Positions 23,913 through 45,250 of a DNA stretch of 64,000 nucleotides are shown piece by piece. Position 1 is the stretch's first letter. Every line of letters starts with the position of its first letter. Source of the DNA: Alphaproteobacteria bacterium (GTDB taxonomy: Bacteria; Pseudomonadota; Alphaproteobacteria; Rs-D84); NCBI GenBank assembly GCA_017960855.1, contig JAGCYJ010000012.1, positions 5,434 to 69,433 on the forward strand, read 5' to 3'. The notes beneath the pieces were generated by a model. It saw only the letters and a list, made by a program, of their open reading frames with translations, was not told the origin of the DNA and did no database searches. A program made the translations under genes and the position numbers.

Positions 23913-24722
23913 TTACAAAATCACTTGGCCACCCAAACGTGAATTACGTGGAATTGGACCAAATGAAGAACGTGGGCTGACATAAATGTTGCCTGTGATG
24001 TCAAAATCGCCACAGAATTGCAACATATTGACATTGCGGATGAACATACTGCCTGTAATCTTGATATTGCACGGCAAAACATATTTGCGCATATTTTGCA
24101 GATACAAATTACCATTGATTTCAGTACCATTGTTCAACATTGTTGCGGCACCACGACTGTCGATAACAATGTCGCCATACATTTTATTGTTGATGCGTGC
24201 AGTTTGTCTTTCTGCAACAGGATCCGGGTGTACTTTGACAACACGAATCGGTTCGCCAATCATGTTATGTGTGCGATCGCGTTTGATTGGCAGAGTGCCA
24301 TAGCGTGATGCAGATTTATCGTCAGAAGATGCTTTTGCATCAGATGTGCTGACTGGTTTGGTCACTGGTTCAGCAATTACCGGCACATTTATTTTTTCAG
24401 CGACAACACTGGCTGGAACTGGATCTGTGACAATAACAACTGGCTTTCTGCGGAAGTTAATGATGTCCAAAATCAGCATAGAGCATAAAACGATAATCGC
24501 AACCAACAACACAAGGTTCAATAAACCAATAACGTTGATGCCACAAATTATACGCCACAACCAGCATAAAAATTGCCAAATTTTGCGGAATGGCCAGCAA
24601 ATAATGTACCAAAGACAAGCCCAGAAACCTGGGGTGCCATTAATACGTCTGCGACGTGCGCGGTTTTCGCGTTCAATACGGTCAGCTGCCACTCTCATTT
24701 TTAATCTTTCGAACATAGACAA
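23913..24722 (-). CDS. Hypothetical membrane-anchored protein with beta-solenoid-like C-terminus
   Basis: 269 aa. An Arg-rich N-terminus is followed by Trp/Cys-rich hydrophobic TM segments (FWACLWYIICWPF, LNLVLLVAIIVLCSMLIL). The C-terminus has short repeats (INGNLYLQN, IKITGSMFIRN, FDITGNIYVS). Confidence 0.65.
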   Translation of the reverse strand: MSMFERLKMRVAADRIERENRARRRRINGTPGFWACLWYIICWPFRKIWQFLCWLWRIICGINVIGLLNLVLLVAIIVLCSMLILDIINFRRKPVVIVTDPVPASVVAEKINVPVIAEPVTKPVSTSDAKASSDDKSASRYGTLPIKRDRTHNMIGEPIRVVKVHPDPVAERQTARINNKMYGDIVIDSRGAATMLNNGTEINGNLYLQNMRKYVLPCNIKITGSMFIRNVNMLQFCGDFDITGNIYVSPRSSFGPIPRNSRLGGQVIL

Positions 24723-24823: not shown

Positions 24824-24848
24824 CATAAAAAACCGCCCAAACGGGCGG
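24824..24848 (-). terminator. Rho-independent terminator of the Cys-rich operon
   Basis: ccgccc-aaac-gggcgg. On the minus strand it is followed by ttttttatgtt. Confidence 0.75.
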
Positions 24849-24864: not shown

Positions 24865-27800
24865 TTATTTCTGTTGATTTATCAGTCCTGTGACTGCACC
24901 GACCACGATGTTTGATCCTGCCACGGTGTTAAGCAAATTTGCTAAGTTTACAAAATTAGTGGTGCAAGACCCAGCTAGCATTTTGATATCAACACGACGA
25001 CATTCTTGGTTGGCTTTAGAAGCACCTGCAGCCGGTTCTGGACATTCAGTAGCAGCAATGCCATATGAGCGAATAGAATCATTTGCGAACACGCCCTTCT
25101 TTGCAAGATAATCCGCAACTGCCTTGGCACGATCAGTAGACAATTGCTGGTTGCCACCACCTTTACCATAATATTTGCTTGTGGATTTGAATCCCTGATG
25201 ATCCGTTTTTCCTATAATCACGATGCAATAATCTTCCGGTTTGCTTAAATCTATATTTGTTGCTTTTGCATCCGTAATAAACGTATCTAACAGGGTAGTA
25301 TCTTTTAGAGTAGCTTTTCCAGAGTCAAACAAAGCGTGTTGTGTGGCATCTGCACGCAATGACGCTTGGGCAAGCGATGTACCTGTATTGGAAGCGGTGT
25401 GTGCGCAGGTTCCATCTGCTTGCGTAGTATATCCTGCTGTGGTGTTGCATGTGCAATTGCCATTTGTGTCGCTTGTATACCCCCGGGCACTATCGCAAAT
25501 ACAGCTGTTCTCGTATTCTACATACCCAGCACTTGTGTTACATGTACATTTGTTGTTACCTTCTTCAATTGCTCCTGCAACACATTTGCATTCTTGTTGT
25601 TCTTTAAGGTGTGCGGCAAGTTTACATTCCTGTGGGAGATCGTTCCCCAGGGTAGGTTCCTGAGCTGGTGTAACAGGAAGTTCTTCTACGCATTGCCCAT
25701 CCTTTTCAATTTTTGTTGAATCAGCGCAAATACAACCATTTTGTTCATCATTCACCCTGAATCCAGGACCGCATTGTATACAGCCGTCGTTTGTTAGATA
25801 TGCATTTTGGGCAGTACAGCGACAGTTTTTCAAATTTGATCCTGTTGCGCCTGGGTACATTTCTGCACAGGTTTTTTCAGGTTGTTTGTTGTCAGAATCT
25901 TGCATATGTTCAAACGGTTGTTTCATTAGTTCGTATTTCTTAATAATTTCATCTGACTTATTCGGATTGTCATGATTAACAACATAATTCGCAACACCTG
26001 AACCGACCGCACCAACACCGGCAACGACCGCACCCGCCACCAACTTCTTTTGAGTCGCAGCCCTTTGTGCAGCCCACATAGCTGCATCTTCGCCATCAGG
26101 GTACAATATAGCGCGTGCAATGGATGCATACACGCCACCGTCGATACCATCTGGGGTATATTCATACAGGCCCGTTTCTGATTTATCAATTACAACTTCG
26201 GATTCAATACCCGGACGGATACCCAACGCTTCTTTGCGTATCTTCAAATCGTTCGCCAGTTGAGCATATTCTTGGTACAGTTCAATCATGTCATTACCGC
26301 CCGGCAATTCAACATTGACTTCGCCACCCTTGATATTTTTACCGTCACCATATTCACAGTGGAATGTTTGCAGATAAGCTGCCATTGCTTGTTCTGCACT
26401 AATATCTGCTGCACGTTCAGACAGCGCCGAACCAACCATTGTACCGCCGATACCGGTCATACCAATACCCGCCGCACCAATTATACGGTTTTCCAGCGAT
26501 GTTTCTTTGTCGCGCATCTTTTGTGCATTGTCGGCCAAAGCAGCGACTTTTTCTTGGTATTGATCTTTTGTAAGGACCATTTTTGCATTACATGCCAAAC
26601 CACTTGGACTGATTTCATAGCCATTTTCACATGCGGAAACAACACATTCCAGTTTATCGTTTAATATACCAGCGGTCGCATGTTCAGGTAATTGCGGGCA
26701 GGGCATACCAACACTGGATTTGCAGGCACCATCAACCAATGTATACGCTGGTTCGTCGCATCCCGTCACTTTACAGAATTCAACACAGGCATTTTCTGAC
26801 TGGCATGCGCTTGCATCTTTTTCTTCGCCACTGGACGCGTCTTTACATGCACGTGTTGCAGCCGTCGCACCGGTCGGCATAGGATTGCACTTTGTATCAG
26901 ACCATGCTTTGCATTTCTGTTCGGTCTTGTCCCAAATCATACCGCAACCGCAATAATCGCAACTGTTGTTAGGTTCGTTCAAATTATAACCCTTGTCGCA
27001 AGCTGTAATTTTACACTCGGTGGCAACACCATTAGGGTCTTCTTTACTTATTTCAAGCTTGGACGCATGTGGGTATTTACTCAACAAATTATCTGGGCAT
27101 TTTTTGCCGATGTGATCGCTTTTTTGGACACAGCCCGTGTATGTTTTTGTTTGGTTATCCCACTGTGGTTCATAATTTGAACCTTTACATATTGGTTTGC
27201 AGACCATTTTACCAGATTTTTGTTCCCAAGTACCCTTGGCTTCGGCATGGTCTTTGTTGCCTTCGAAATCACAGTTGCCGTTTGGTGCCGTACAAATATT
27301 ATTTACGGTGTCTGGGGTATAAGGATCTTCGCATTGCTGGACAACACAAACCTCTTTACATTTCTCACCCTTGGCACAGGTCAGGTTAAATGCTTTATTG
27401 TTGTTTTGGCACATAAGTTTGCCCATACCAGTGGCATGTGCCGGCAAGCCCTTGTTGCACTGTCTGGCGGTATCATCTTTGTCTTTGCATTGACCCTGGC
27501 CACTGTAAACTTGGCCACAGCCACATTTAGAACTGACGCACATTTTACCGTCTTCTACATCCAAATTATCCTTACATTTCGTAATCTGACAGGTCTTTAC
27601 AGATCCATCGGAATTACGTTCTGTGATAACACCATCATCGGCCTTGGGATCCATTTTAGATAATATATCATCTGGACAAGTTTTCTTTACTTCTTCGCAT
27701 TTGCGGGTTTTCTTGCTGACTTCATACCCAACGGCAGCACCACAATCTTTCGGTACACAAATCTTTTGACCATTTTTCGTCAGTTCCCAGAAACCTTCTT

Positions 27801-30465
27801 TTGATGCATATTGACCACCATCCGTCACAGTACAGTCAGAATCAATGGAAACACAGATTGCGTTTTTGAGTCCCTTGTCGCCGTCCTTGATCTCAAACAG
27901 GGCGCTTTCACATGTGTCAATATAGCAATATGCTTGTTTAGGTGTTGAATTATCGCATGCCATGTGTGCTTTTTTCGCATTGTCGGGCAAACGTGGGTCG
28001 GAACGCTTGTCGCATTGTGGCGGATTATTACCCCATGCTGTACAATTTTTCTTATCACTGGATAAATTATAACCGCATTCACACTTGCTGATTATACATT
28101 CGCCACGTTTGTTAGTTGTGGTTTCCAGTGCATGATTTTGTGATATCAACTGCTTTTCTACTTCGTCTGTACATTTTTTAACACAAGTTTCGCCGTTTTC
28201 ATCGGGAACTTTTGTTTTATCTGAACATTCAGTTATTTTGCATGTCGCAATATCGCCAGTATTGACATTCCAATATTTATCATCTGGTGTTACTTCCATC
28301 TTTCTGGCGTCGGGATTTGTTATGCGATTTGGGCAAGTTTTTTTATCAAACACACATTCATACGCGGTGCCATTTAATTTTGCTTTATAGTTTTCCCAAC
28401 ACACAGGTTCGCAAGCGATAACATCATTCTTTGTACGTACTGCTTTACCTTTCAAATGTGTCTTTGCGTGGGGCAGGTTGGCATCAATATCACAAGGTGT
28501 GCCAGCAACACGAACACAATGATTTTTGCCATCAGTGCCTTTTTGGGCTTCATAATCTTTGGAATCGCAATCGTCAATTTCACATGCGGTTATTTGCCCA
28601 CCAACGAAAGCGGTTACATGACCTTTGTCCGCATGATCATCACCAGTTAGGCGTTTTAATGTACTGCCATTGCATGGTTTGCCGATTTGGTATTCACACT
28701 TTGCATTACATTTATCATTAGCATGTCCGGCGGCATCACATTTTTGTGACATACCCAAAGCATACTTATCTACGGCATAGCCATCTTCACACGATTGCAG
28801 TTCACATACACCGTTGTTGATAATTGCGGCGGTCGCATGTTGGATATAATCTTTACAATCTGTACCAGTTGTTGATAAGCAAACTGCGTTTTCACCGCTG
28901 CCGTTCATTGCGTATTTAGGCGTATCACATTCCGTCGGATAACAATATTTTGAATAATCCAATGATTGTGCTGTTTCATTCGCCGACGGAGTGGGTGCAT
29001 TAGATTTAAGGGCGGCGGCGGTTGCATGAAGGTAGTTTTTGGCCCTTGAAGAAGAACAATCAACAACACACGCGCCACTTTGTTCACGGAATCCGTCAAG
29101 ACAATTTCTGGCAACGCACCTGTTGTTGTCAACCGTCACATCGCGTGCAAAAGGTACATCACTTTTTTGACAGAGTTTACAATAAGCGTCCACGGTGTTC
29201 TGGCGTTCCAATGTGTAGCCGCCCAAACAAGCAGCAGGTATGCATTTTTCATTATTTAAAACTTTAACCGCCGTTGCATTAAATTGTTTTTTTTCGGCTT
29301 CTCCACATTTAACCGCAGAAATAGTGGCCGCGTCAATAATATTAGAATCTGGTTCCAAACGAATAACTATTCCGCTACGCAATTCGCTAGCTGGTATAAT
29401 CCTTGTTTTATACTGTAGATAGGATACTTCTGCATCAGCATTCCTTGGGAAGTTAATTATTTCAAAATGTCCGTCTGTGTCTGCTACTGCGGAATTGTGG
29501 TGCTCTAGTGTCTGACCACGTGGAGAAATCGTGGCACCAATGGCAGGTTCACTATTTTCAAGTAAAATGGTTCCTGTTATGGTGTTCAAGGCGCCTGTGC
29601 CAGAACCGTCGGTGCCACTTGAAGTATTACGAGTGGTCGAACCACTGCCGCTAACATTGCGGGTCGGTGTAGAATTGTAATTAGCATACGGTATACGCTT
29701 GCCATTATCGGATTCAGATACCGTTGTTTCATACTGCGGTTGGTCTTTGGCTTGGAACAACAAAGTGCAATGACCTTTTTTGAAAACACATTTTATTGTG
29801 AAGTTTCCTTCGGGATTGCTTTTGGCTGGGGTACTGCTTCTGTTATTCTTATCTGTGATGGTGACGTTAACCAATGGTTTGTAATTACCAGAGGATGCTT
29901 CATACACAATCTTTGCACTAAAATCTTTTGTTTCATCGCCCGCTGTTGTGGTGCCCGATGAACCGCCACCAGTGCGGGTTGTGGAGGTTGTCGAACCGCC
30001 ACCTTTACGAGTTGAGTTATTTTTGTATTTTACATGAACCTGCAAACTCTTAAAGTTATCGGGGTTAAAATTCTTTGGAATCTTTATTGGATCTGGATTT
30101 GCATAAGTTTCCAGTGCTTCTTGGCTTATAATATCAAAATAAAGTGTACCCGATTCTTCTGGTTTAAGGGCTAAACTAAATGTTGGAGAACCCGTATATG
30201 CATTTGTTGTCAATGTTTTAGCATTTTTATCATCAGGCACGAAACGTATCGTAACCCGAGGGAGAAAGGGTTCGTAGCTTTCTGGTTGTACAATGGTTCC
30301 GCCTATTATTATATAGTCTTGAAGCCGTTGTGGAATATACTGACATACTATTTGACCATTCGTTATGGCACATTGGTTTGCTTTAATGTCAAGAAATTCC
30401 GCAGCAAGCGCCGCATTGACCCCAGATAATACAAATAAAAATGCAAATAATATCTTCTTCATCAT
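24865..30465 (-). CDS. Giant (1866 aa) cysteine-rich envelope protein with C-terminal OmpA-like domain, family member E
   Basis: The signal peptide is MMKKILFAFLFVLSGVNAALAAE. There are at least 14 repeats of a C-x4-C-x2-GY-type module and glycine-zipper segments (AAGIGMTGIGGTMVGSAL; AGAVVAGVGAVGSGVA). CxC-N-x2-AGY EGF-like repeats are present. The C-terminus reads GKTDHQG...NQQLSTDRAKAVADYLAKKG...ECRRVDIKM, which is OmpA_C-like. Confidence 0.85.
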   Translation of the reverse strand: MMKKILFAFLFVLSGVNAALAAEFLDIKANQCAITNGQIVCQYIPQRLQDYIIIGGTIVQPESYEPFLPRVTIRFVPDDKNAKTLTTNAYTGSPTFSLALKPEESGTLYFDIISQEALETYANPDPIKIPKNFNPDNFKSLQVHVKYKNNSTRKGGGSTTSTTRTGGGSSGTTTAGDETKDFSAKIVYEASSGNYKPLVNVTITDKNNRSSTPAKSNPEGNFTIKCVFKKGHCTLLFQAKDQPQYETTVSESDNGKRIPYANYNSTPTRNVSGSGSTTRNTSSGTDGSGTGALNTITGTILLENSEPAIGATISPRGQTLEHHNSAVADTDGHFEIINFPRNADAEVSYLQYKTRIIPASELRSGIVIRLEPDSNIIDAATISAVKCGEAEKKQFNATAVKVLNNEKCIPAACLGGYTLERQNTVDAYCKLCQKSDVPFARDVTVDNNRCVARNCLDGFREQSGACVVDCSSSRAKNYLHATAAALKSNAPTPSANETAQSLDYSKYCYPTECDTPKYAMNGSGENAVCLSTTGTDCKDYIQHATAAIINNGVCELQSCEDGYAVDKYALGMSQKCDAAGHANDKCNAKCEYQIGKPCNGSTLKRLTGDDHADKGHVTAFVGGQITACEIDDCDSKDYEAQKGTDGKNHCVRVAGTPCDIDANLPHAKTHLKGKAVRTKNDVIACEPVCWENYKAKLNGTAYECVFDKKTCPNRITNPDARKMEVTPDDKYWNVNTGDIATCKITECSDKTKVPDENGETCVKKCTDEVEKQLISQNHALETTTNKRGECIISKCECGYNLSSDKKNCTAWGNNPPQCDKRSDPRLPDNAKKAHMACDNSTPKQAYCYIDTCESALFEIKDGDKGLKNAICVSIDSDCTVTDGGQYASKEGFWELTKNGQKICVPKDCGAAVGYEVSKKTRKCEEVKKTCPDDILSKMDPKADDGVITERNSDGSVKTCQITKCKDNLDVEDGKMCVSSKCGCGQVYSGQGQCKDKDDTARQCNKGLPAHATGMGKLMCQNNNKAFNLTCAKGEKCKEVCVVQQCEDPYTPDTVNNICTAPNGNCDFEGNKDHAEAKGTWEQKSGKMVCKPICKGSNYEPQWDNQTKTYTGCVQKSDHIGKKCPDNLLSKYPHASKLEISKEDPNGVATECKITACDKGYNLNEPNNSCDYCGCGMIWDKTEQKCKAWSDTKCNPMPTGATAATRACKDASSGEEKDASACQSENACVEFCKVTGCDEPAYTLVDGACKSSVGMPCPQLPEHATAGILNDKLECVVSACENGYEISPSGLACNAKMVLTKDQYQEKVAALADNAQKMRDKETSLENRIIGAAGIGMTGIGGTMVGSALSERAADISAEQAMAAYLQTFHCEYGDGKNIKGGEVNVELPGGNDMIELYQEYAQLANDLKIRKEALGIRPGIESEVVIDKSETGLYEYTPDGIDGGVYASIARAILYPDGEDAAMWAAQRAATQKKLVAGAVVAGVGAVGSGVANYVVNHDNPNKSDEIIKKYELMKQPFEHMQDSDNKQPEKTCAEMYPGATGSNLKNCRCTAQNAYLTNDGCIQCGPGFRVNDEQNGCICADSTKIEKDGQCVEELPVTPAQEPTLGNDLPQECKLAAHLKEQQECKCVAGAIEEGNNKCTCNTSAGYVEYENSCICDSARGYTSDTNGNCTCNTTAGYTTQADGTCAHTASNTGTSLAQASLRADATQHALFDSGKATLKDTTLLDTFITDAKATNIDLSKPEDYCIVIIGKTDHQGFKSTSKYYGKGGGNQQLSTDRAKAVADYLAKKGVFANDSIRSYGIAATECPEPAAGASKANQECRRVDIKMLAGSCTTNFVNLANLLNTVAGSNIVVGAVTGLINQQK

Positions 30466-30471
30466 ACTTTC

Positions 30472-32850
30472 CTACTGCAGTAAACGATACGCGAATGTGC
30501 ATTTGCTTTGGCCAGTATAGGTAACTTCGCATGTGCTGTTTGAACCAGAACAAATGGACTTATCAAGTTGAAGGCAAAATGCACCGTGTTCGTTAGCGGT
30601 ACTATTTTTTAATGTCGGATAATCTAGATGAAGGTAATATTTAATGCCGGTAGCAGAAGGTGAGTTTTCCACAGCAGGATAACCGAGACCGACATTGCTA
30701 TCTTTGTTCATAGAACTTTCCACAAACAAACGTATTTTTTCGCGTTCTGTGGAATCTGTGACTCTAATATTATTCGCCTGTAACTTATTCATAATGGTGG
30801 TGAACAAATCGGTATCGTTTTTGTCAATCGACGCCTTCAAACTTTCCGTGGCAGCTGCTTTCGTAATATCAGATTCCGCGATTTTCAATATCACAGTTGC
30901 TGGAACATCTTTTGCTTGTATTTCTTCGTCTTGATAGTTATCAGTTGGCAAAAGTAAAAACTGAATTATTTGTTCTGAATCTATATCGTCAATGGTATAT
31001 TTACCATCTGATCCTGTTGCTACTTCGGCATCAGAATCTTTTGCACCAACCCTTACACCAGAAACACCGTTACCATCTGGATCTACAACCCTTCCTGAAA
31101 GAGTACGTGTTTCGGCATCATATGCCATGTCAAGATCTGTAAGATTTGCCCCTTTGGCAAATATTGTTGATTCGTCTTCGGCGATAAATTGTCCCGATGT
31201 CAATGTTGCCGTTCCCAAAGAAGACACGTTGAAATTACGATCAAACGAAATGCAACCATATTCTTTGTCAAAGTGTTGTTTGCTGGGGTCTGGGCACGCA
31301 CATGTATTTTGTGATGACAACCAAGTTCCCTTTATACCACCTTTTGAACCTTCACAGATTTTCTGTAATTCGTCACTGTGCAGAGAATTCGAGATTTGGT
31401 TCGCCTGTTTACTAAGCTCATCCATGGTCTTAGTTGACCCTTTCTTTGTTCCTTCTTCTTTATCTGTATCAGTTTCGTCCAAGGTACCAACTTTGGCAAG
31501 GCATTCTTCTTCGGTCATGTCGCCATCTTCCATGCATTCTTTTAATCCTGCTTCATAGTCCTTTTCTGCCTTGTACCGGGCAATCGCACGATCAATTGCG
31601 CCAGATGTAAGCGCACCAACCGCTTGGCCAACACCAGAACCCAACATGGCCGAAGATGCCGCCGTCTGGGCACGTGTTGCGCGGAACGCATTTTCGCGGA
31701 ATGTTGTTATGTCAATTCCAAACCAATTTTGTGTGCAGTCAAATGTTGAACCTGCATATGCTTTCTTGGATGCATATAGTGTAGAATCCCCGTTGGCATA
31801 GAAATTCACCGTATAGACGCAATCTAAACTGCGTTCGTCAAACATTGCGCCCAAACGTGTGCAAACGGAACGCATCTGTTCGCGCAAATCATATAATCTG
31901 CGTTCATCGGTCGCAATTTGACGTTCGGCATTTTGACGGACTTCGCCGAATACAGACATTGTACGCATTGCCAAGCCAGAATCATATTCAACACATGATT
32001 TTGCGATGTTTTCACATTTTCTTATTGCTTCGTCGCCCGCGCTTTTACCAATACACTTGGAATAGGTCGCGCCACATTGTGCAATGATACAGGTGTCATA
32101 ATTGTTTCCGCAATCAATGGTCGCGTTGTACACCGCCAATTTTGCGTTCAAATCGCGATCGGCCTTGATTTCAGCAGAAAGTAATTGGTATTCATGACCA
32201 GTGCAATTTGTTGTGCGACGGCATGTATCCATTTTGTCAAAGAAAGTTGTGTCTGTGTCTGCAACACATTTGCCAAAATTAGAACCACATTTTTGTATCA
32301 TGCATTCGCGCAACATGCTATCGCAGGCATTTTCGCCAGTACCAGATAAGTCGGTTGCCATAACCTTGGCCGCAGATACTGTATCCGCTGCATCCAGCGC
32401 GGCACGTTGAATACGAACCAATTCAGCCAATGTTGTCGCCGAAGAATCAAGTTCAGATGACGATTGCGATGACAATGTTGTACTAAATTGTGACGACTTG
32501 TTTTCAACCTTGGATGTATCAGCAACAAATTCTTCTTTCTTTTGTGTTTGCTGTGACGAAGAACTGGTCGTTGTGGTTGTCGTCGTAGTTGTTGATGACG
32601 ACGAAGTTGAATTTGACGTAGATGATGAATTAGAGGTTGATGTGCCTTTAGAAGAGGAACCAGAACCTGTCTTGACCGACATTGTTGGCATACGCGAAGC
32701 CGCAGATGTTGGGCGCGATGCAGATGCCTTGGCCGTGGTTGATGACGGACGTGGAACCACATTAGCCGCCGTCGCATCCGCAAACGTTGCCAAGACAGCA
32801 ACAATTATGCCATAAATGCTTTTGTTCAAGATTCCGTTTCTGTACATCAT
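30472..32850 (-). CDS. Cysteine-rich secreted/envelope protein, family member D
   Basis: 792 aa. A signal peptide is present, followed by a Ser/Thr-rich tract (SSSTSNSTSSSSTTTTTTTTT). C-x6-C-x4-C motifs are present (CDSMLRECMIQKC, CGNNYDTCIIAQC), as is a glycine zipper (LGSGVGQAVGALTSGAI). A CarboxypepD_reg-like segment is present (LSGRVVDPDGNGVSGVRVGAKDSDAEVATGSDGKYTIDDI). It lies 6 nt upstream of member E. Confidence 0.85.
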   Translation of the reverse strand: MMYRNGILNKSIYGIIVAVLATFADATAANVVPRPSSTTAKASASRPTSAASRMPTMSVKTGSGSSSKGTSTSNSSSTSNSTSSSSTTTTTTTTTSSSSQQTQKKEEFVADTSKVENKSSQFSTTLSSQSSSELDSSATTLAELVRIQRAALDAADTVSAAKVMATDLSGTGENACDSMLRECMIQKCGSNFGKCVADTDTTFFDKMDTCRRTTNCTGHEYQLLSAEIKADRDLNAKLAVYNATIDCGNNYDTCIIAQCGATYSKCIGKSAGDEAIRKCENIAKSCVEYDSGLAMRTMSVFGEVRQNAERQIATDERRLYDLREQMRSVCTRLGAMFDERSLDCVYTVNFYANGDSTLYASKKAYAGSTFDCTQNWFGIDITTFRENAFRATRAQTAASSAMLGSGVGQAVGALTSGAIDRAIARYKAEKDYEAGLKECMEDGDMTEEECLAKVGTLDETDTDKEEGTKKGSTKTMDELSKQANQISNSLHSDELQKICEGSKGGIKGTWLSSQNTCACPDPSKQHFDKEYGCISFDRNFNVSSLGTATLTSGQFIAEDESTIFAKGANLTDLDMAYDAETRTLSGRVVDPDGNGVSGVRVGAKDSDAEVATGSDGKYTIDDIDSEQIIQFLLLPTDNYQDEEIQAKDVPATVILKIAESDITKAAATESLKASIDKNDTDLFTTIMNKLQANNIRVTDSTEREKIRLFVESSMNKDSNVGLGYPAVENSPSATGIKYYLHLDYPTLKNSTANEHGAFCLQLDKSICSGSNSTCEVTYTGQSKCTFAYRLLQ

Positions 32851-32865
32851 TTTAACACAATCCGT

Positions 32866-33726
32866 TTATTTTAATGTAGAACACGCTATGTCATAGAACT
32901 TGCACAACTGGGTCGCCATTGACCGTTCAGATGGATGCGCTTCGTCACACTGGTTCGGCATACTGCGGTTACATATTGATATTATACACGCATCGCGTCC
33001 GGAATTGTCCTTGCACGATTGGGTAATAGATGCCAAACGTTTTTCACGTGCATCGCGATACGATTGAACAAGTGCCAACAGCGCATTTTCTGCGTTTTTT
33101 ATGGCATTATCACGTGCCGTCATCAATGTTGTACGAATGTCCGCCAAATATTCGTCGCACCCAGTGGCCGCCACAGAACATTCAGAAAAATACCGATTGA
33201 AATCAGAATCTTCGGCACAAGCACTGTACCTAGATGTACATTTTGCATTACCAACAACGCACGCTGTGATTTCCGATGAACATGTTGCAGATGTCTTTTT
33301 CTGGCGTGCTTTTTCAAACAAAACAGACATTTGGGCGGTAATTCCCGCAGCAGTACACGACTGTTCAATCAGGGAATCATAGGTTTCAGATACGTCGTCC
33401 GCCGTACAACCGTCAATCATTGTTATACACTTCTTGGATGCCCAAACATAACGCTCTCCTGGGTCAGTTGGGGCATTTTTTAGATCCTTGGACGATATGG
33501 TAAACCGCGAAGATGTTCCAACAGAAACAGCCCGCATTCCCGCGTCGTTCGGTTCGCCCGCGTCCGCCGTACCACAGTATTGACATCGGGCCGCCGGATT
33601 GGACGATACATTAATGGCACACGCAGAATCCAGACAACGCGTCAAATTCGCGCGTGAACACGCCGTGTGCCCCATATTTGGCACCAGCGCAAAAGCAAGC
33701 ATTATAAAAGCAGTTTTCTTTATCAT
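32866..33726 (-). CDS. Cysteine-rich secreted protein, family member C
   Basis: The ATG at 33726 (ORF track starts at 33849) gives the signal peptide MIKKTAFIMLAFALVPNMGHTA. Motifs CSRANLTRCLDSAC, CSSEITACVVGNAKC and CKDNSGRDACIISIC are present. It lies 15 nt upstream of member D. Confidence 0.8.
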   Translation of the reverse strand: MIKKTAFIMLAFALVPNMGHTACSRANLTRCLDSACAINVSSNPAARCQYCGTADAGEPNDAGMRAVSVGTSSRFTISSKDLKNAPTDPGERYVWASKKCITMIDGCTADDVSETYDSLIEQSCTAAGITAQMSVLFEKARQKKTSATCSSEITACVVGNAKCTSRYSACAEDSDFNRYFSECSVAATGCDEYLADIRTTLMTARDNAIKNAENALLALVQSYRDAREKRLASITQSCKDNSGRDACIISICNRSMPNQCDEAHPSERSMATQLCKFYDIACSTLK

Positions 33727-33801
33727 TTCTCTCTGATGCTTGATTATATCAAAAATAAGGGGCGGGTGCAAAGGGAAAAAAACAAAATTGCATTTTATCT
33801 C

Positions 33802-33860: not shown

Positions 33861-34544
33861 ATGGCTAAAAAAGGTACAAGTTTTTGGGTTAATATCGGTT
33901 CAGGCGCTATTGCTGTGTTGGCAATTGCCGCGATGATTGTCGCTACATCCAAGTGCAGCGGTGCCGAACAAGAAAACACACAAACTGCCAGGGCATTGGC
34001 TTCTGCTCGTGCTGAAATTGAACAGAAAGATGAAACAATTGCTGATTTGAATGAAGGCATCGAATATTTGAAAGCAGAAAATAAGATGCAGAAAGATTCT
34101 ATTGATGTAATGAACCAATTTAACAAGGACATCAAGGCGGAAAATGATTCTTTGAAAGTGAATTGCGTACAAAAAAAGAAAAAAACCGCAAGAAAACCTG
34201 CAGCAAAACCTGCAGCTAAGCCGGCAACAAAACCATGTGTGACACCATCTGTTACAGTTGTGTCTGGCGATAAAAAGGTTGTTGTTGGTGCATGTGGCGA
34301 AGAAAAGCCATCTGTCAAGGTCACTTCTGCTGAAAAGAAAGTTGTTGTTTGCGGACAAGATGAAACCAAAGATCAAGGTCGTGTTATCGTGAACGGTGAC
34401 AACAACGGTCAGATTATTGTTAATACAAATGGTATCGTTGAAGCAAACGGTAATGTTAATGGTCATGACAATAACGTGAACAGTGCAAGCAAGGGTTCGC
34501 TTGAAGGATATGCGATTGTCAGAAGCCGTGCGAAATGCCGTTAA
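33861..34544 (+). CDS. Hypothetical membrane-anchored coiled-coil protein
   Basis: 227 aa. The N-terminal TM segment is GSGAIAVLAIAAMIVATS. A heptad-like region follows (EIEQKDETIADLNEGIEYLKAENKMQKDSI), then a KPAAKPAAKPATKP linker and an Asn/Gly/Val-rich C-terminus. Confidence 0.7.
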   Translation: MAKKGTSFWVNIGSGAIAVLAIAAMIVATSKCSGAEQENTQTARALASARAEIEQKDETIADLNEGIEYLKAENKMQKDSIDVMNQFNKDIKAENDSLKVNCVQKKKKTARKPAAKPAAKPATKPCVTPSVTVVSGDKKVVVGACGEEKPSVKVTSAEKKVVVCGQDETKDQGRVIVNGDNNGQIIVNTNGIVEANGNVNGHDNNVNSASKGSLEGYAIVRSRAKCR

Positions 34545-34611: not shown

Positions 34612-34664
34612 GCTAGACAGGGTTGCGAAATATATGCTAATATTAAAAGCACAGAGAGAAATTG

Positions 34665-37600
34665 ATGAGATTTATGCGGATTTTCGGTTTTTTACTGTTT
34701 TTGTTGCCGATGGCATCATTTGGCGCGACTAATGAATTTATGGTTGCTGCACAGTTGTTGTCTGCGGCAAAAAATGCCGATATCCAGCAGGTTCAAGCCC
34801 TTATCAACAACGGTGCAAATGTAAATTATGTTGATTCAACGGGGCTGTCAATCGTGTGTACCGCATTGATGAATAACGATGTACGCGCGGCTCAGATATT
34901 ACAAATGTATGGTGCTGATGCGGCAAATTGTGATCGCCAGATTAAACAGTATAATTCAAGGAACAAACCCGAACGAAGCGGGGGATTGTTCGGTGGGTTA
35001 TCCTCGGCCCAAAGCATAACATTAGCGGCGGCGGGTGCCGCCGTTATCGTTGGTGGACTTTTTTTGTTGACCGATGTGTTTGATCCAGGCAACAGCAACA
35101 AGTCATCGTCCAGTGGATCACACGGTGGTGGTAATGGTGGTGGTAATGGCGGTTCGTCTGCAACGGTGGCGTTTACTTTGCCGTACGGTCCCGCAATGAC
35201 AGATGCCAAGGCCGAAAATTCTGACTATGTGAACAATTTGAATTTTTACAGTCCATCTGATGAAAACAGTTCTTATTACAGAAATTACACATTGATGAAC
35301 AATTCCGCGATAACCCAGAATTATTTGCTGATGATGCATGGCTATTCGGCGTTGGCGCGTGGATATAATGGGCTGCAGACATTGCGGTATAAAGATTCTG
35401 CATATTCGCCGGTGCCAAGGACGGTGTTAAACGGTTATGCGGTTTCGGGCTATACGGTTGAAGGTGGGCGTCCGGTAAATGTCGCGCTGATAACCGCCAA
35501 CGGTATCAATATGCATGGAAAACCGGCGGGCGAAATAACGGCAGCGGTTGATTCATTGGACGATCGTTTTGTTGCGTGGACCGCGCTAAATGGTTCTTCG
35601 TTGATTGAACCCGAATACACCAATTTATCCAGTAAATATTACAACAATGCAATTACCTTTGGCGAAGATGCCGCGAACAAGGTTGCCGATGCAACAACAG
35701 CCGAAGATGGAATGATGGTTGATTTCTTTGATTTGTCGGGTAATGGAACTGCGGTCGCTAATACGGATGCGACAGACTATGACAATTTGTTGGCCAAGGT
35801 TGTGGCTGGTGCTAATTCCGGTTTTTCGGGTGCCGACTATATGGGCTTTATGCCGTATGGGCAACTGACGATATTTCGCACGGGTGGTGGTGTGGACAGT
35901 AATGGCGACCCAACGGACTATTATAATTACAAGGCATTAAGAAATGCCGCGACTTTATATGCGGCGGGGGATTTGACCGCGCGTTCACATCCCGAGATTT
36001 TTGCAAACTTGGATGTGATTGACCCGTTGCATGCGTTTGATGCCCCAACCATAGAAACATTGTTGTCAAACAATCCAGATATGACAAAGAAAGATTTATA
36101 TCAGGCCGCTTTCTCTGTATATGTGAATTCTATGTATGGCGATGATGATACAACATATCAGCCCGGAACAGATTCTTATTACTTCTTCAATAATTTAGGT
36201 TCCGCTTATTTGCCATTGGTGTTGTTCTCTACTGGTGCGGTGGAAACGAATTCAACGTATTCGGGCGAAGCAAAGGTGGCGACATTTGAAAATGCTGCGC
36301 CATTGGTGTATGACAATTTGGAACATTTGTTTGCGTCCATTGTTGCAGTGGGGCAGACAGGAACTGCTTATACTGGAAATATCGCCAGTTATACGCCGTC
36401 GGGTAAATATGCACTTATGCAGTGGCAGAACACAAATGGTACTGCCGACGATGCATCTGATGATACATACTATCGTGCGCGTATGTGTGGCATTGCGGGA
36501 TTTGGTTTGGGTGATATTGATCCATGGTGTTTTGCATCTGTTGGTATGACGGATGAATTAGCGGTCGCTTCGGCTGCGGGTGCGTTCGGCGCGATGAAAT
36601 CGGCTTTTCCGTATTTAAGTAATAAACAAATATTTGCGCTGGCGGCTTTGACCGCGGACGGTGCTTATTTGGGAACACTGGACGGCAAAGCGGCGACCAA
36701 GGATGTGCTGACTTCTTATCTGCAGGGTTTATATATATTGCCAGATGAATATCAGGTATATGTTGACGGTGGCCATATGACGTATCTGGATGCTTTCAAA
36801 GAAGTGTTTGGTTATGGTTTGATAAATGTTGAACGCGCAACGACACCGGGCAAAAGCATACATTATTATAATGGCGACAGCATTGTTGCGGCATCGGGAA
36901 ATGCATATTGGCGTGCGGCGACAAATACCGCGTTTCGTTCTTCGTCCGCGTTCGGTGCGCGTGATGCGACATTAAGAACATCTGCGTATGATGTTTTGAC
37001 CAGTGTTGATGGTGAATTGTCTTTGCCACGTGTCTGGACAAGTGAATTTACAATTGGTGCGAATTCTAAACATGGTTTGTATATGGGCGACGTGTTGGGC
37101 GAATTGCGGACACGCGACGAAGCGGACAACCGTATTCAAATCGGGCAAATGGGATTTTCAATGACGACATCACAACGCGCCTATGCCGACAGTATGGGTG
37201 GTTTGGATAATATGAAATTGGATTGGACGTCGGGCGATTGGAACTTTGCCGCCGGCTATCAACGTCACTTTACTGATGGGGCATCACGGTTTACGGGGTT
37301 AAGTAATCCGATTTTGGGATTGGCATCAAACGCGGTTATATCGGATGCAAAATATAACTTTGGTAAATGGTCATTTGGTGCGCGTGCTTTTTCAGGAAAT
37401 GTGACGGATGAATCTTTGTTGGAAAATGATCCGACAATTGCGGCGAACTATGAACCGGCGCGTCTGGGGTTTGTTCGTGGTGCGGGTGCCAGTGTCGGTT
37501 GGAAAAACGACCGCTTTGCGTTTGATACAACAGTTGGAACGGCAAATGAAACGAATACGGTACTGGGTGCATATACCAATGGCTTGTTGGGCATGGGTGC

Positions 37601-38081
37601 TGGTGAAACGGTCTATGTCGACAACGAATTGCGTTTCCGTCCGACCGATAGTTTGACACTGACGGCGCGTGCGACATTCGCGCGGACAACAACTGACGGG
37701 GCGGGGGGATTGGTAATGGGCGTGTCGCCATTGGAATCAAATGCGTTCGCGTTGGGCGCCGATTGGGGTAATTTCCGGTTCAGTGTGGCGCAACCGTTGG
37801 CGGTTCGTCATGGAAGTTTGAAATACGCATATGCTGATTACAATGTTGTTGATACAGACGACGGCAATTTTGCGCTGGATATTGCGGACACCCATGTCGC
37901 GGATATAGATTTGAGTGCACGTACCCGCGAAGTGCGTTTCAGCGGTGAATATCGCCATAATTTTGGGACATTTACCGATGGTGCATTGGGCTTTATATAC
38001 CGCGTAAATCCGAACAATACGGATGAATTCGGTAATGAATCCATCTTTATGATGAAACTGACACACCGTGTCGGGATTTAG
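34665..38081 (+). CDS. Ankyrin-repeat / subtilase-like / beta-barrel outer-membrane protein (autotransporter-like)
   Basis: The signal peptide is MRFMRIFGFLLFLLPMASFGA. ANK-like repeats are present (AAKNADIQQVQALINNGANVNYVDSTGLSIVCTALMNNDVRAAQILQMYGADAN). A hydrophobic segment AAAGAAVIVGGLFLL and a Gly/Ser linker follow. S8-like remnants are present (GMTDELAVASAAGAFGAMKSAFPYLS; FGYGLINVERA). The C-terminal ~330 aa are beta-rich. Confidence 0.65.
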   Translation: MRFMRIFGFLLFLLPMASFGATNEFMVAAQLLSAAKNADIQQVQALINNGANVNYVDSTGLSIVCTALMNNDVRAAQILQMYGADAANCDRQIKQYNSRNKPERSGGLFGGLSSAQSITLAAAGAAVIVGGLFLLTDVFDPGNSNKSSSSGSHGGGNGGGNGGSSATVAFTLPYGPAMTDAKAENSDYVNNLNFYSPSDENSSYYRNYTLMNNSAITQNYLLMMHGYSALARGYNGLQTLRYKDSAYSPVPRTVLNGYAVSGYTVEGGRPVNVALITANGINMHGKPAGEITAAVDSLDDRFVAWTALNGSSLIEPEYTNLSSKYYNNAITFGEDAANKVADATTAEDGMMVDFFDLSGNGTAVANTDATDYDNLLAKVVAGANSGFSGADYMGFMPYGQLTIFRTGGGVDSNGDPTDYYNYKALRNAATLYAAGDLTARSHPEIFANLDVIDPLHAFDAPTIETLLSNNPDMTKKDLYQAAFSVYVNSMYGDDDTTYQPGTDSYYFFNNLGSAYLPLVLFSTGAVETNSTYSGEAKVATFENAAPLVYDNLEHLFASIVAVGQTGTAYTGNIASYTPSGKYALMQWQNTNGTADDASDDTYYRARMCGIAGFGLGDIDPWCFASVGMTDELAVASAAGAFGAMKSAFPYLSNKQIFALAALTADGAYLGTLDGKAATKDVLTSYLQGLYILPDEYQVYVDGGHMTYLDAFKEVFGYGLINVERATTPGKSIHYYNGDSIVAASGNAYWRAATNTAFRSSSAFGARDATLRTSAYDVLTSVDGELSLPRVWTSEFTIGANSKHGLYMGDVLGELRTRDEADNRIQIGQMGFSMTTSQRAYADSMGGLDNMKLDWTSGDWNFAAGYQRHFTDGASRFTGLSNPILGLASNAVISDAKYNFGKWSFGARAFSGNVTDESLLENDPTIAANYEPARLGFVRGAGASVGWKNDRFAFDTTVGTANETNTVLGAYTNGLLGMGAGETVYVDNELRFRPTDSLTLTARATFARTTTDGAGGLVMGVSPLESNAFALGADWGNFRFSVAQPLAVRHGSLKYAYADYNVVDTDDGNFALDIADTHVADIDLSARTREVRFSGEYRHNFGTFTDGALGFIYRVNPNNTDEFGNESIFMMKLTHRVGI

Positions 38082-38567: not shown

Positions 38568-38597
38568 AAAACCGCCCGTTTGGGCGGTTATCTTTTA
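38568..38597. terminator. Bidirectional rho-independent terminator
   Basis: aaccgccc-gttt-gggcggtt between convergent genes. Confidence 0.75.
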
Positions 38598-39833
38598 CGA
38601 CAATTTGTGAATTACCAAACCACTGCGCAGTTTCGGTTCAAACCATGTCGTCTTTGGTGGCATGATGTTGCCGGTATCTGCAATATCAATGATTTGTTGC
38701 ATTGTGACGGGATACAGTGCAAACGCCACCGCCATTTCGCCGGAATCAACACGTTTCTGTAATTCGCCAAGTCCGCGAATACCACCGACAAAGTCAATAC
38801 GTTTGCTGGTGCGTAAATCGCCAAGGTTCAAGATTTTATCAAACACCAAGTTCGACAAAACGGTCACGTCCAAAATGCCGATTGGGTCGCTGTCGTTATA
38901 TGTGCCGGCGCGCGCGGTCAATGAATACCATTTGCCACCCAGATACATACCAAAGTTATGCAATTTTGTCGGCTTGTAAATGTCGGCGCCCATTTCCACC
39001 ACTTCAAATGATTCCGACAATTTTTCCAAGAACTGTTCGTTTGTTAAGCCGTTCAAATCGCGCACAACGCGGTTATAGTCGATAACATGCAACTGGCTTG
39101 CTGGGAAAATCACAGCCAAGAAAAAGTTGTATTCTTCATTGCCGGTGTGGTTCGGATTTTGTTCGCGTTTTTCCGCGCCAACACGTGCAGCGGCGGCGGT
39201 GCGGTGATGACCGTCGGCGACATACATTGCCGGAATATTTTTAAAGATTTCAGTTATGCGGGCGTTAATCGCGTCATCGCGAATTGCCCAAAAAGTATGA
39301 CCAAATCCATCGGGTGCAACAAAGTCGTATTCTGGGGCATTGTTTGCTACAAAGTCCGCAACGATTTTGTTCATTTCATCTACATCTGGATACGCAAAGA
39401 ACACCGGTTCAATATTCGCGTTTTGGATACGCACGTGAATCATACGATCGTCTTCTTTGTCTTTGCGAGTCAATTCGTGCTTTTTAATTTTGCCGGTCAT
39501 ATAGTCATCAACATTTGCCGCGGCGACCAAACCATATTGCGTGCGACCGTCCATAGTTTGCGCATAGATATAATACATTTCTTTGTCGTCTTGGACCAGC
39601 CAGCCGTTGTCTTGCCATTTCTTGAAGTTTTCGACGGCTTTGTCGTATGTTTTCTGTTCGTGTTCGTCGGCAATCGGATCAAAATCAATTTCTGGTTTGA
39701 TAATGTGCAGTAATGATTTTTCACCGGCTTCGGCCTTGGCTTCAACAGAGTTCAGAACATCATACGGACGTGATGCAACTTCGGCTGCTAATTCACGCGG
39801 TGGGCGAACACCTGCAAATGGTTTTATTTTCAT
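38595..39833 (-). CDS. DUF1015 family protein
   Basis: 412 aa. The N-terminus MKIKPFAGVRPPRELAAEVASRPYDVLNSVEA...LLHIIKPEIDF, the ADGHHR motif and the length all fit the conserved DUF1015 family. Confidence 0.75.
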   Translation of the reverse strand: MKIKPFAGVRPPRELAAEVASRPYDVLNSVEAKAEAGEKSLLHIIKPEIDFDPIADEHEQKTYDKAVENFKKWQDNGWLVQDDKEMYYIYAQTMDGRTQYGLVAAANVDDYMTGKIKKHELTRKDKEDDRMIHVRIQNANIEPVFFAYPDVDEMNKIVADFVANNAPEYDFVAPDGFGHTFWAIRDDAINARITEIFKNIPAMYVADGHHRTAAAARVGAEKREQNPNHTGNEEYNFFLAVIFPASQLHVIDYNRVVRDLNGLTNEQFLEKLSESFEVVEMGADIYKPTKLHNFGMYLGGKWYSLTARAGTYNDSDPIGILDVTVLSNLVFDKILNLGDLRTSKRIDFVGGIRGLGELQKRVDSGEMAVAFALYPVTMQQIIDIADTGNIMPPKTTWFEPKLRSGLVIHKLS

Positions 39834-39893
39834 GTAATAATCTCCTTTTAGTTCTTGGGGATTATTACACGAAAAAACAAAAGGTAAATAAAA

Positions 39894-40973
39894 TTATTTC
39901 ACTTTTATTGGAATAATTGTCTGGACTTTGACTGTGTCCAGCGGGACATATTGAAACTGGACTTTTGCGAAGTCAATGTTTTTCATATCAATGGATCGAA
40001 TTGTCCGATTATACATGGTATGATAGTAAATGACTTTGTCGCCCAAATCGGTCGCGATTGTCCATTGGGTCGCGGACGGCATATTATTCGTTGCACGTCC
40101 AGAATCAAATTCCACACCCAACGGCACATCCAAATTATTTAAGATATGAAACGCCTTCATTGTGGATTCATATCCATTTTTTTGTGGCACAGAATAGTTG
40201 CTAAGCAGCGCCGCCCGAACAAATCGTGATGGTGGTGTAAAATCGCCCGGCAGCCCCAGCATTTTACTGTCTGAACCAAACGCGTTCAGTGTTGTGTCAC
40301 CAAGTTTTTTAGAACTATTGGTGCCCGGTTCCAGATTTATATAATTGTTAAGATTTGTAAGGTGCCATGGATACCCCGGCGAATTTGCGATTGCGCCGAC
40401 CTTGCTTTCATAGAAATGGGCGTTGCCGTCAATAAATTCTAAAATGACTTGGCGGCCGGTCGCGTCTGTTATGCGCCAATGCACCGTTGACGCGGTTGGA
40501 TCAACATTTGCGACGGTGATATCTTTTATCGCTTCTATGACTTGGTCAATGGTTGAAAAGCGCGACAGCATCCACGCCACCAATTCAAAATCGGCAATAG
40601 TGTTTTCTTTATTAAGTGCGCTGTATTTTGGATATTCGCCATAATCTGGAAAATAGAACAGACCCGCGGACAAGCCCGCTTCGTTTGTGCCGTCAATTAC
40701 AAAGTCCGGTATTTGCACCGCGATTCCGACATAGCCATATACTGATGTAAACTCCAGCCCGTCCATTTTACCGCTGGGGGTCAGTGATTTTTGTGTATGA
40801 CCGCGTGGCGCGATAACATACATACTGTTCATTTCGTCGCCATGCCAATCCACAGTGCGCGCAACAACCACAGATTTATCTTTTGCCCGCAGGGTGATAC
40901 CTGTGCATGCGTTGCCATAGTTGATAATTCCAATAATGCCGGCGATTGCGGCGGCAAAAAATCTTGTGTTCAT
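39894..40973 (-). CDS. Secreted choloylglycine hydrolase family (Ntn linear amide C-N hydrolase)
   Basis: The ATG at 40973 follows GGGGGGA. The signal peptide ends ...INYGNA, immediately before CTGITLRAKDKSVVVARTVDW. That places the catalytic N-terminal Cys after cleavage, which is typical of the bile-salt hydrolase / penicillin V acylase family. Confidence 0.8.
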   Translation of the reverse strand: MNTRFFAAAIAGIIGIINYGNACTGITLRAKDKSVVVARTVDWHGDEMNSMYVIAPRGHTQKSLTPSGKMDGLEFTSVYGYVGIAVQIPDFVIDGTNEAGLSAGLFYFPDYGEYPKYSALNKENTIADFELVAWMLSRFSTIDQVIEAIKDITVANVDPTASTVHWRITDATGRQVILEFIDGNAHFYESKVGAIANSPGYPWHLTNLNNYINLEPGTNSSKKLGDTTLNAFGSDSKMLGLPGDFTPPSRFVRAALLSNYSVPQKNGYESTMKAFHILNNLDVPLGVEFDSGRATNNMPSATQWTIATDLGDKVIYYHTMYNRTIRSIDMKNIDFAKVQFQYVPLDTVKVQTIIPIKVK

Positions 40974-41069
40974 TTTATCCCCCCTTGATATAATTATTAT
41001 GCGGAAAAACGGCGCGCCCAGACCATAGGAACCATTGCAAATTGGGCTGTTTATTTTCCCAAAATTTTG

Positions 41070-41078
41070 TGATACAAT
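41070..41078 (+). promoter_or_regulatory. Extended -10 element TGaTACAAT, 7 nt upstream of the ATG at 41086 (leaderless geometry)
   Basis: tgatacaat at 41070-41078, then gcgacac, then ATG. Confidence 0.45.
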
Positions 41079-41085
41079 GCGACAC

Positions 41086-44197: not shown

Positions 44198-44325
44198 AGG
44201 TTTTTAATCCTTTGCATTGGATTATACTATATGTCGGAATATATTCCTAGGAATTGTTTATGTTGCTTTTTGTGTCAGATTTCATTATCGTTTATACATA
44301 GACAACGCAAGGCAAGGGGGATTCT

Positions 44326-45240: not shown

Positions 45241-45250
45241 GGCGATTGAT

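Follow-up and report, generated by a model that had tools for sequence, protein, structure and literature searches.

We analysed a window of 64,000 nucleotides (the whole stretch of DNA under study) from an alphaproteobacterium of the Rs-D84 lineage (assembly GCA_017960855.1, contig JAGCYJ010000012.1, positions 5,434 to 69,433), and focus on one gene at 24865..30465 on the minus strand, whose product of 1866 residues, with 107 Cys in total, is built around a long array of small Cys-rich modules. From the second Met onward the protein is identical to MBP5364196.1 in NCBI (P0001 in our set, 1865 residues), which is recorded as 'OmpA family protein [Alphaproteobacteria bacterium]'. Scans of the whole protein with Pfam and NCBIfam recognised CarboxypepD_reg and OmpA and nothing else.

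Three closely spaced genes lie in a row on the minus strand, and the big gene is the third. The first, p327 (32866..33726), encodes a secreted protein of 286 residues from the likely start MIKKTAF, with 20 Cys, and ends 15 bp before p792; p792 (30472..32850), likewise secreted and with 25 Cys, ends 6 bp before the big gene. Apart from a weak CarboxypepD_reg match in p792, which also features an S/T-rich mucin-like stretch and a Gly-rich hydrophobic stretch, neither of these proteins has relatives in Pfam or the Protein Data Bank (PDB). Upstream of p327 lies a promoter-like site (33743..33772, minus strand; TTTGCA and TATAAT separated by 18 nt, with an upstream TG), recognised by its match to the consensus, and 17 nt past the stop codon of the big gene lies a terminator-like GC hairpin with a T-run (24833..24848, minus strand). 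The cluster made up of a gene for an ankyrin-repeat protein, a gene for a small protein, p327, p792 and the big gene recurs at two loci with homologues of 27-35% identity (L081 and L083) and in a close strain (L084); a partner of p792 is conserved in all three, and p327 is 73%, 53% and 87% identical to its respective partners. Judged from these comparisons, the predicted operon of secreted Cys-rich proteins is conserved and new. A simple foreign insertion was rejected, because the same neighbourhood is found in L081 and L084 and the base composition is unremarkable. Nucleotide synteny with related species ends ~75 bp past the stop codon of the big gene.

The protein (coordinates in this and the following paragraphs are on the minus strand) begins with a signal-peptide-like stretch (residues 1-22, 30400..30465; MMKKILFAFLFVLSGVNAALA followed by AEF), which is its top hydropathy peak (1.96) and whose cleavage site we placed by reading; an N-terminus of the MKKILF...PAMA type is common to nearly all family members. 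An N-terminal domain (residues 23-150, 30016..30399) without Pfam or PDB match is 80-94% identical to that of P0207, a close relative of 1981 residues from the same >=90% cluster as P0004. It is followed by a variable 'head' of two CarboxypepD_reg-like beta-sandwich domains (PF13620/PF13715; residues 177-270 and 292-384, 29314..29937) connected by S/T/G-rich linkers. Summed over the two stretches of the whole protein, the matches reach 39.0 and 35.9 bits, above the gathering threshold of ~32; scored separately, the single domains reach 25 and 29 bits, which is below it, and a PDB profile search with the head gave nothing meaningful. Then come the array of about 17 modules with 80 Cys (residues 385-1296, 26578..29313), an anchor domain delimited by its conservation across the family (residues 1297-1510, 25936..26577), a region of C-x-C...[AR]GY repeats with 18 Cys, recognised by reading and loosely EGF-like (residues 1533-1687, 25405..25869), an OmpA-like peptidoglycan-binding domain (PF00691; residues 1712-1831, 24973..25332) and a Gly-rich hydrophobic tail (residues 1844-1862, 24880..24936; hydropathy 1.60). 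A preliminary description, made by a model from the letters alone, had already given this order from the signal-like N-terminus through the two CarboxypepD_reg-like domains, the array, the Gly-rich helices (within the anchor) and the C-x-C repeats to OmpA, and had called the combination undescribed. Both statements hold: the sources label the protein only 'OmpA family protein' or 'hypothetical', and when 1.84 billion representative proteins were scanned exhaustively with HMMER, a profile of the array matched only 79, all in this lineage.

The array carries most of the Cys, and its repetition is well supported. The module has the consensus CTEQKKKNATAAKEACKNGKEVCKITACEDGYTPNEDGNKCV, in which four Cys are conserved (C...C-x4-C...C). 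All of the 14 C-x4-C cores listed in the preliminary description, as well as both C-x3-C variants, were located between residues 408 and 1274, together with its six HA[TKS] elements, and its manual estimate of ~80 Cys in the central ~1000 residues compares with 79 in residues 401-1300 and 80 in residues 385-1296. The C-x4-C motif was counted 15 times, where 2000 composition-matched shuffles gave 4.7 +/- 2.1, and self-BLAST yielded 58 off-diagonal high-scoring segment pairs at E<=0.01, compared with 0-7 once the sequence was shuffled locally. A module hidden Markov model (HMM) of 42 positions, seeded solely from a 27%-identical homologue (P0005), found 14 copies in the window protein at a domain E<=0.05, 11 of which scored 19-31 bits, and 17 copies in the centre of the protein at E<=1; on 30 shuffles it found 0-1 and 0-2, respectively. 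The periodicity is therefore statistically supported by self-BLAST and by the module HMM against shuffles.

The preliminary description spoke of about 16 tandem modules. They are tandem indeed, but they are not equal units, since the array is hierarchical. About six less regular modules stand ahead of three super-repeats of ~190 residues with 4-5 sub-modules each, among them a mini hairpin of the form C-x-C-G-x2-[WY]. Super-repeats A (residues 700-921, 27703..28368) and B (residues 922-1113, 27127..27702) were delimited by a three-copy alignment and score 235 and 283 bits, respectively, with a super-repeat HMM, and B is 86-98% identical to P0207; super-repeat C (residues 1114-1296, 26578..27126) is the part of the array that was modelled. 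At the DNA level the gene holds no repeats besides a 21-nt duplication in the second Gly-rich helix of the anchor, so that the modules, at ~25-30% identity to one another, are old duplications. A slipped-strand or cassette mechanism was rejected on the same ground. A six-frame scan of the window gave no further copies of the module or the anchor. In the exported Cys-rich regions the numbers of Cys are all even (4, 80, 18 and 4), which is consistent with complete disulfide pairing.

What, then, is the module? Against the whole window protein, PF21671 (CPL1-like; gathering threshold 27.4 bits) gave no match at E<=1. When the modules were scanned one by one, 5 of 16 matched it, at 23.8, 21.9, 19.5, 18.8 and 14.7 bits (best E 4.7e-5). 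These matches span profile positions ~21-60, the 'HAT' strand included, and the four conserved Cys line up with the C-terminal two-thirds of the profile. In relatives the similarity is stronger: P0008, P0012, P0016 and P0014 score 36.8, 38.2, 37.9 and 31.0 bits, all above threshold, and PF21671 is found at E<=1e-3 in 23 of 61 family members (best E 2.2e-12), where the match sits exactly on the module core K-C-x-I-x2-C-x2-G-[YFW]-x(6-8)-C. By profile similarity, the module is a divergent, sub-threshold relative of PF21671, a catalogued fungal domain, and not a new fold class. The preliminary description had counted a match to a known Pfam repeat against its own reading; relatives do pass PF21671 while the window modules stay below threshold, which leaves that reading standing only in part.

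In the fungal PriA/Cpl1 family, which includes Cfl1, Dha1 and Cpl1, PF21671 (IPR048661) stands for the Cys-rich domain at the C-terminus (PMC12864254), and the fungal proteins that carry it are secreted adhesin-like or flocculin proteins (PMC12864254, PMC3926872). Cfl1 requires its Cys-rich 'SIGC' C-terminus, to which PF21671 probably corresponds, for adhesion and matrix signalling (PMC3926872). Like these Cryptococcus proteins, the bacterial protein is predicted to be secreted and uses a small Cys-rich domain, and the alignment takes in the HA-x strand, the C-x4-C strand and the GY hairpin of the bacterial module. However, the fungal members are small proteins in which a single C-terminal copy accompanies an N-terminal region specific to fungi (IPR038955; PMC12864254), whereas the window protein is a bacterial protein of 1866 residues with about 17 tandem copies; in the family as a whole, up to 18 tandem copies in a giant, putatively envelope-anchored protein stand against the single fungal copy. 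The apparent use of a CPL1-like domain as a tandem array in bacteria is new and is not described in the literature that we found.

No EGF-type Pfam model matched the window protein or its modules, cEGF matched only 3 of 61 relatives, and the module has four Cys where the EGF framework has six. The pattern C-P-x-LP-x-HA...C-x2-GY-x-L had prompted us to consider Sushi/CCP, which was rejected because no Sushi Pfam model matched the protein or the modules at E<=10, the Cys spacing differs and no conserved Trp follows the third Cys.

An AlphaFold2 model of super-repeat C, run on a 14-row alignment of paralogous and orthologous copies, has a mean predicted local distance difference test (pLDDT) of 93.3 and consists of stacked beta-hairpin units. 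In each modelled module, the HA-x strand and the C-x4-C strand pair into a long beta-hairpin, and a short GY-x-L / C hairpin comes after it. The super-repeat profile had no match among PDB sequences, and Foldseek with the model against the PDB returned nothing significant (best E 0.17, TM score ~0.2); no structure of a fungal CPL1 domain was met in the PDB searches made with the array profile and the model. The top Foldseek neighbours, none of them significant, were without exception ectodomains of extracellular proteins, EGF-like in tandem or rich in Cys: Pfs25/Pvs25, MSP1-19, the Cys-rich regions of the insulin and Eph receptors, the TNFR family and an Entamoeba lectin. As modelled, the array may resemble the Plasmodium proteins Pfs25/Pvs25 and MSP1-19 and receptor Cys-rich stalks in being a rod of small, putatively disulfide-rich two-hairpin modules, but it differs from these EGF-like and receptor stalks in its four-Cys module and in lacking both a significant structural match and an EGF Pfam match.

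The protein belongs to a family with a common plan: a signal peptide, a CarboxypepD_reg start, 1-18 modules and the anchor, with OmpA present or not. A search with the whole protein gave three proteins and one with the Cys-rich centre four more. That module number varies between related proteins, a check which the preliminary description had proposed, is borne out: the central region measures 913, 831 and 547 residues in three homologues, and insertions and deletions add or remove whole modules.

Over longer distances the anchor is the most conserved part. It is 73% identical in P0003 and 56% in P0005, where the head, the array (about half of which could be aligned), the C-x-C repeats and OmpA are 23-39% identical. 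The preliminary description had passed over this domain, the most conserved and least known part of the protein, which contains what it called the Gly-zipper region. The anchor (~215-235 residues) occurs in 74 of 82 family proteins, always directly after the array, and across no fewer than 152 protein clusters; among these are stand-alone proteins of ~250 residues that start with a signal peptide and end just past the second Gly-rich helix; a minimal member of 411 residues consists of head, one module and anchor. The layout is a helix, Gly-rich helix 1, an invariant F-x-C-x-Y-G hairpin with a helical core, and Gly-rich helix 2. Helix 1 (residues 1328-1348, 26422..26484; IIGAAGIGMTGIGGTMVGSAL; hydropathy 1.29) lies inside modelled helix 29-72, and helix 2 (residues 1475-1496, 25978..26043; LVAGAVVAGVGAVGSGVANYVV; hydropathy 1.67) inside modelled helix 164-203. 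These values are borderline for a membrane span when set against 1.96 for the signal peptide, and the hydrophobic tail that ends the protein is a third such segment. The anchor had no match in Pfam and one chance match in a PDB profile search, and Foldseek with its AlphaFold2 model against the PDB gave nothing significant. By these searches it is a new, unannotated family without a Pfam entry.

Two small features of the anchor may be added. The 21-nt tandem duplication (25992-26034) is the sole tandem DNA repeat in the gene and encodes the GAVVAGV/GAVGSGV heptads of helix 2. Furthermore, the anchor carries a single invariant Cys (residue 1370, 26356-26358) within F-x-C-x-Y-G, as opposed to the even numbers in the other Cys-rich regions; it could be a free thiol, form an intermolecular disulfide or be a sign that the anchor core sits in a reducing compartment.

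No EGF model in Pfam matched the C-x-C repeats significantly, the weak matches being DUF5874 (E 4.5e-4), TIL_2 (0.016), Pvs28 EGF (0.58) and metallothionein (0.45), so that the EGF-like repeats of the preliminary description are there by reading but are EGF-like only in a loose sense. For OmpA, PF00691 (cut-off 27.2) gives the whole protein 31.3 bits and its isolated C-terminus 36.3. The OmpA-like family has a motif region of the form TD...N-x2-LS-x2-RA-x2-V, and in residues 1741-1800 we read GKTDHQG ... NQQLSTDRAKAV, a putative peptidoglycan-binding motif. NCBIfam models of the OmpA type align with the OmpA part only; this includes the best of them, NF053611 ('YiaD family glycine zipper/OmpA-like lipoprotein'), at 32.3 bits against a cut-off of 175. 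The combination of a Gly-rich helical segment with an OmpA-like domain recalls the YiaD/SlyB type of glycine-zipper outer-membrane lipoproteins. Unlike these, the window protein has no lipobox, its signal peptide ending in VNAALA before AEF without a Cys, and its Gly-rich helices are ~125 residues apart and flank a conserved domain without known relative.

Comparison with close strains reveals a different aspect of its evolution. The flanking genes on the contig of P0004 are 96-99% identical to those of the window at the protein level, and 93.9% at the nucleotide level. Within the protein, blocks of 90-98% identity to P0207 (residues 1-100, 451-600 and 901-1100) alternate with blocks of 22-50% (residues 200-400, 600-800 and 1500-1866), and the anchor is 76-84% identical. 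The head is the most divergent block (22-38%), and against L084 it has, at residues ~175-436, zero nucleotide similarity despite flanks that are 94% identical. The operon partners also drop in identity between these strains, p327 to 87% and p792 to 58% (792 against 901 residues). Such a mosaic suggests that recombination has shuffled alleles, and as far as sequences can tell, strain-level mosaicism of this sort in a gut symbiont with a reduced genome is new. Hypervariability extends to every part but the anchor, even to OmpA, and this suggests one compartment for both arms and another for the anchor core.

The ecology of the lineage gives these observations a context. Rs-D84 bacteria, Candidatus Enterousia among them, are widespread in the guts of humans and livestock and are thought to depend on other cells, while their attachment to partners is unexplained (PMC12306168); among the relatives anchored on lepB we likewise find metagenome-assembled genomes (MAGs) of Candidatus Enterousia and of uncultured gut Alphaproteobacteria, sampled from the rumen, from livestock and from the human gut. 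The organisms are anaerobic fermenters without respiratory chains, have genomes of <1 Mb that lack key biosynthetic pathways, and have been proposed to take metabolites from other cells via uncharacterised membrane proteins (PMC12306168). In genomes of this size, a gene of 5.6 kb is a large investment.

The reading that we favour, with a probability of about 0.45, is that the gene product forms a fibre anchored in the envelope and stabilised by disulfides, which would serve a partner-dependent gut bacterium as an adhesin-like contact protein. The protein would be exported by Sec and then oxidised in the periplasm, where the anchor and the OmpA domain would fix it to the outer membrane and the peptidoglycan. 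The modules would stack into a rod that serves as a rigid spacer, longer or shorter according to their number, and the head, perhaps together with the modules, would attach to a ligand that varies, carried by a host or partner cell; the exposed parts may have diversified through recombination between alleles. In support of this idea, mosaic hypervariability is typical of exposed proteins under selection, which counts indirectly for exposure at the surface. Also in its favour are the statistically supported repeats with their confident model, the relation of the module to a fungal adhesion domain, the family plan of a variable passenger on a conserved anchor, the conserved operon and the lifestyle of the lineage. 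In bacterial fibrillar adhesins, tandem domains form a long stalk, complemented by a tip domain and an anchor to the cell. Judged by sequence, the window protein is like them in its great length, its repeated stalk of variable repeat number, its distinct terminal domains, its conserved anchoring end and its hypervariability between strains, with surface exposure being putative here. It is unlike them in that the stalk domains known from them are Ig-like and poor in Cys, and in that its anchor is a new helical Gly-rich domain with OmpA rather than a sortase signal, a beta-barrel or a retention module of a type I secretion system (T1SS).

Several points weigh against this reading. If both Gly-rich helices pass through one membrane, the array and OmpA come to lie on the same side of it, and if OmpA is bound to the cell's own peptidoglycan, that shared side would be the periplasm. 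No known outer-membrane translocator, such as a beta-barrel or a signal of T1SS or of the type V secretion system, was recognisable in the protein with Pfam and NCBIfam, and a passenger with ~40 disulfides would be hard to move across the outer membrane by known routes. There is no known adhesive domain in the protein, CarboxypepD_reg being a generic beta-sandwich. The OmpA and C-x-C regions are as variable as the head (26-40% identity to P0207), which is unexpected for a periplasmic anchor on peptidoglycan, and the helical model of the anchor is of moderate confidence (pLDDT 68). Finally, the operon is missing at the syntenic position, within the 10 kb that follow lepB, in the representatives of 80 related species, where tblastn matched lepB, rnc, secG and p269, the gene downstream of the big gene, and nothing for the big protein, p792 or p327. 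Because of this absence, the operon is not essential to the whole genus.

The first of these points can be turned into a different account, in which the protein is a periplasmic scaffold or spacer, tethered to a membrane by the Gly-rich hairpin and to the peptidoglycan by OmpA, whose disulfide-rich rod builds, together with its two Cys-rich operon partners, a structural layer that stiffens or spaces the envelope in the manner of the chlamydial cysteine-rich envelope proteins. With a signal peptide, two hydrophobic helices and a C-terminal OmpA, the two arms would end up on the side of OmpA, provided that the helices both cross one membrane; no outer-membrane translocator was recognised with Pfam and NCBIfam, three co-transcribed Cys-rich secreted proteins suggest a complex, and stand-alone anchor proteins are common in the lineage. 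Yet such extreme mosaic variation beside flanking genes that are 96-99% identical is not expected of an internal structural protein. Moreover, with 1-18 modules there is no fixed 'ruler' length, many related species do without the operon, and a rod of ~17 modules would probably exceed the width of the periplasm. On balance we regard a scaffold as unlikely, if the strongest competitor of the contact fibre.

The place of the anchor in the envelope bears on both accounts. It would be tempting to see in it an unrecognised envelope-anchoring or display module of Rs-D84 Alphaproteobacteria, which would hold variable arms on the exposed face of the outer membrane and a conserved core on the protected one, and would let a bacterium with a tiny genome present a recombining array of a domain known otherwise from fungal adhesins for attachment to a host or partner cell, but we consider this doubtful. 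Equally doubtful is its extension that the arms would comprise the Cys-module rod with the head and, in some members, the C-x-C and OmpA part. The Gly-rich helices may instead form an inner-membrane hairpin with a cytoplasmic core, against which their borderline hydropathy speaks.

The similarity to PF21671 also invites the idea of a host-directed signalling or immunomodulatory ligand, whose many CPL1-like copies would engage receptors of the host, either in situ or once set free by proteolysis, as happens to fungal Cfl1. Cpl1 has been reported as a secreted TLR4-dependent effector that activates TLR4 and polarises macrophages (bioRxiv 10.1101/2021.09.02.458767), and the paracrine signalling of Cfl1 needs its Cys-rich C-terminal domain (PMC3926872). 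The organism inhabits animal guts, and an ankyrin-repeat protein and a bile-salt hydrolase are encoded among the neighbouring genes. However, the similarity is remote, with the window modules below the Pfam threshold, no obviously fungal protein is among the 79 array-profile matches, nothing links the bacterial modules to TLR4, and the conserved anchor and OmpA favour retention over secretion, which together make this idea improbable.

That C-x4-C is not the usual zinc knuckle counts against a last and very improbable idea, namely that the four Cys of each module coordinate metal, forming an extracytoplasmic store or sensor for an anaerobe that may be without disulfide machinery. The four conserved Cys per module would suit it, as would the weak metallothionein match on the C-x-C region and the lack of respiratory chains (PMC12306168), with which the quinone-dependent DsbB pathway may be absent, but against it stand the even Cys counts throughout the exported parts, the relation of the module to a secreted fungal Cys-rich domain, the confident AlphaFold2 hairpins with disulfide-rich EGF/TNFR-type ectodomains as Foldseek neighbours, and the lack of a conserved His/Asp co-ligand pattern.

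The distant domain family of the module and the general kind of protein, a giant repetitive envelope protein, are already known. If the product is an adhesin-like contact fibre, the locus would be a concrete candidate attachment factor for Rs-D84, combining a variable head, a rod of variable length, a conserved anchor and a recombination hotspot. The array also extends the CPL1-like/SIGC domain, so far discussed for fungal adhesins only, into bacteria in tandem form. The anchor family deserves a definition of its own, and the conserved anchor could be used as a marker for such surface proteins in MAGs, with the variable regions as strain markers.

The surroundings of the operon show some further features. 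Downstream of the big gene, p269 (23913-24722, minus strand) encodes a conserved membrane-anchored protein without Pfam match that is found in 58 of 80 related loci; it has its own promoter-like site (24777-24750) and is the last syntenic gene ahead of the variable region. On the other side, and divergent from the operon, a gene at 34662-38081 (plus strand) encodes a protein of 1139 residues with N-terminal ankyrin repeats, in which Ank_4 is the sole Pfam match and the C-terminal ~1000 residues are unassigned. This protein is kept beside the operon, with identities of 70% in L081, 53% in L083 and 96% in L084. Between the operon and this gene lies p227 (33861-34544, plus strand), which encodes a small Lys/Ala/Pro-rich protein and contains a 12-nt tandem repeat of 4.5 copies (34182-34234) of the KPAA type. 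Strains differ strongly in this protein, with 51% identity in a short stretch, and a weak HC2 (histone-like) flag falls on the L081 homologue. Farther out, the flank (38595-41087, minus strand, and 43475-46006) carries DUF1015, a member of the choloylglycine (bile-salt) hydrolase family, DUF5662, a GT8 glycosyltransferase and two APH-like phosphotransferase genes, a set consistent with a gut-adapted organism. In the closest species representative (L002, 13235-17563), genes for products of 591, 229 and 607 residues occupy the place after p269 instead of the operon; by reading, the second product appears ClpP-like and the third seems to abound in helix-hairpin-helix motifs, a hint of a phage origin.

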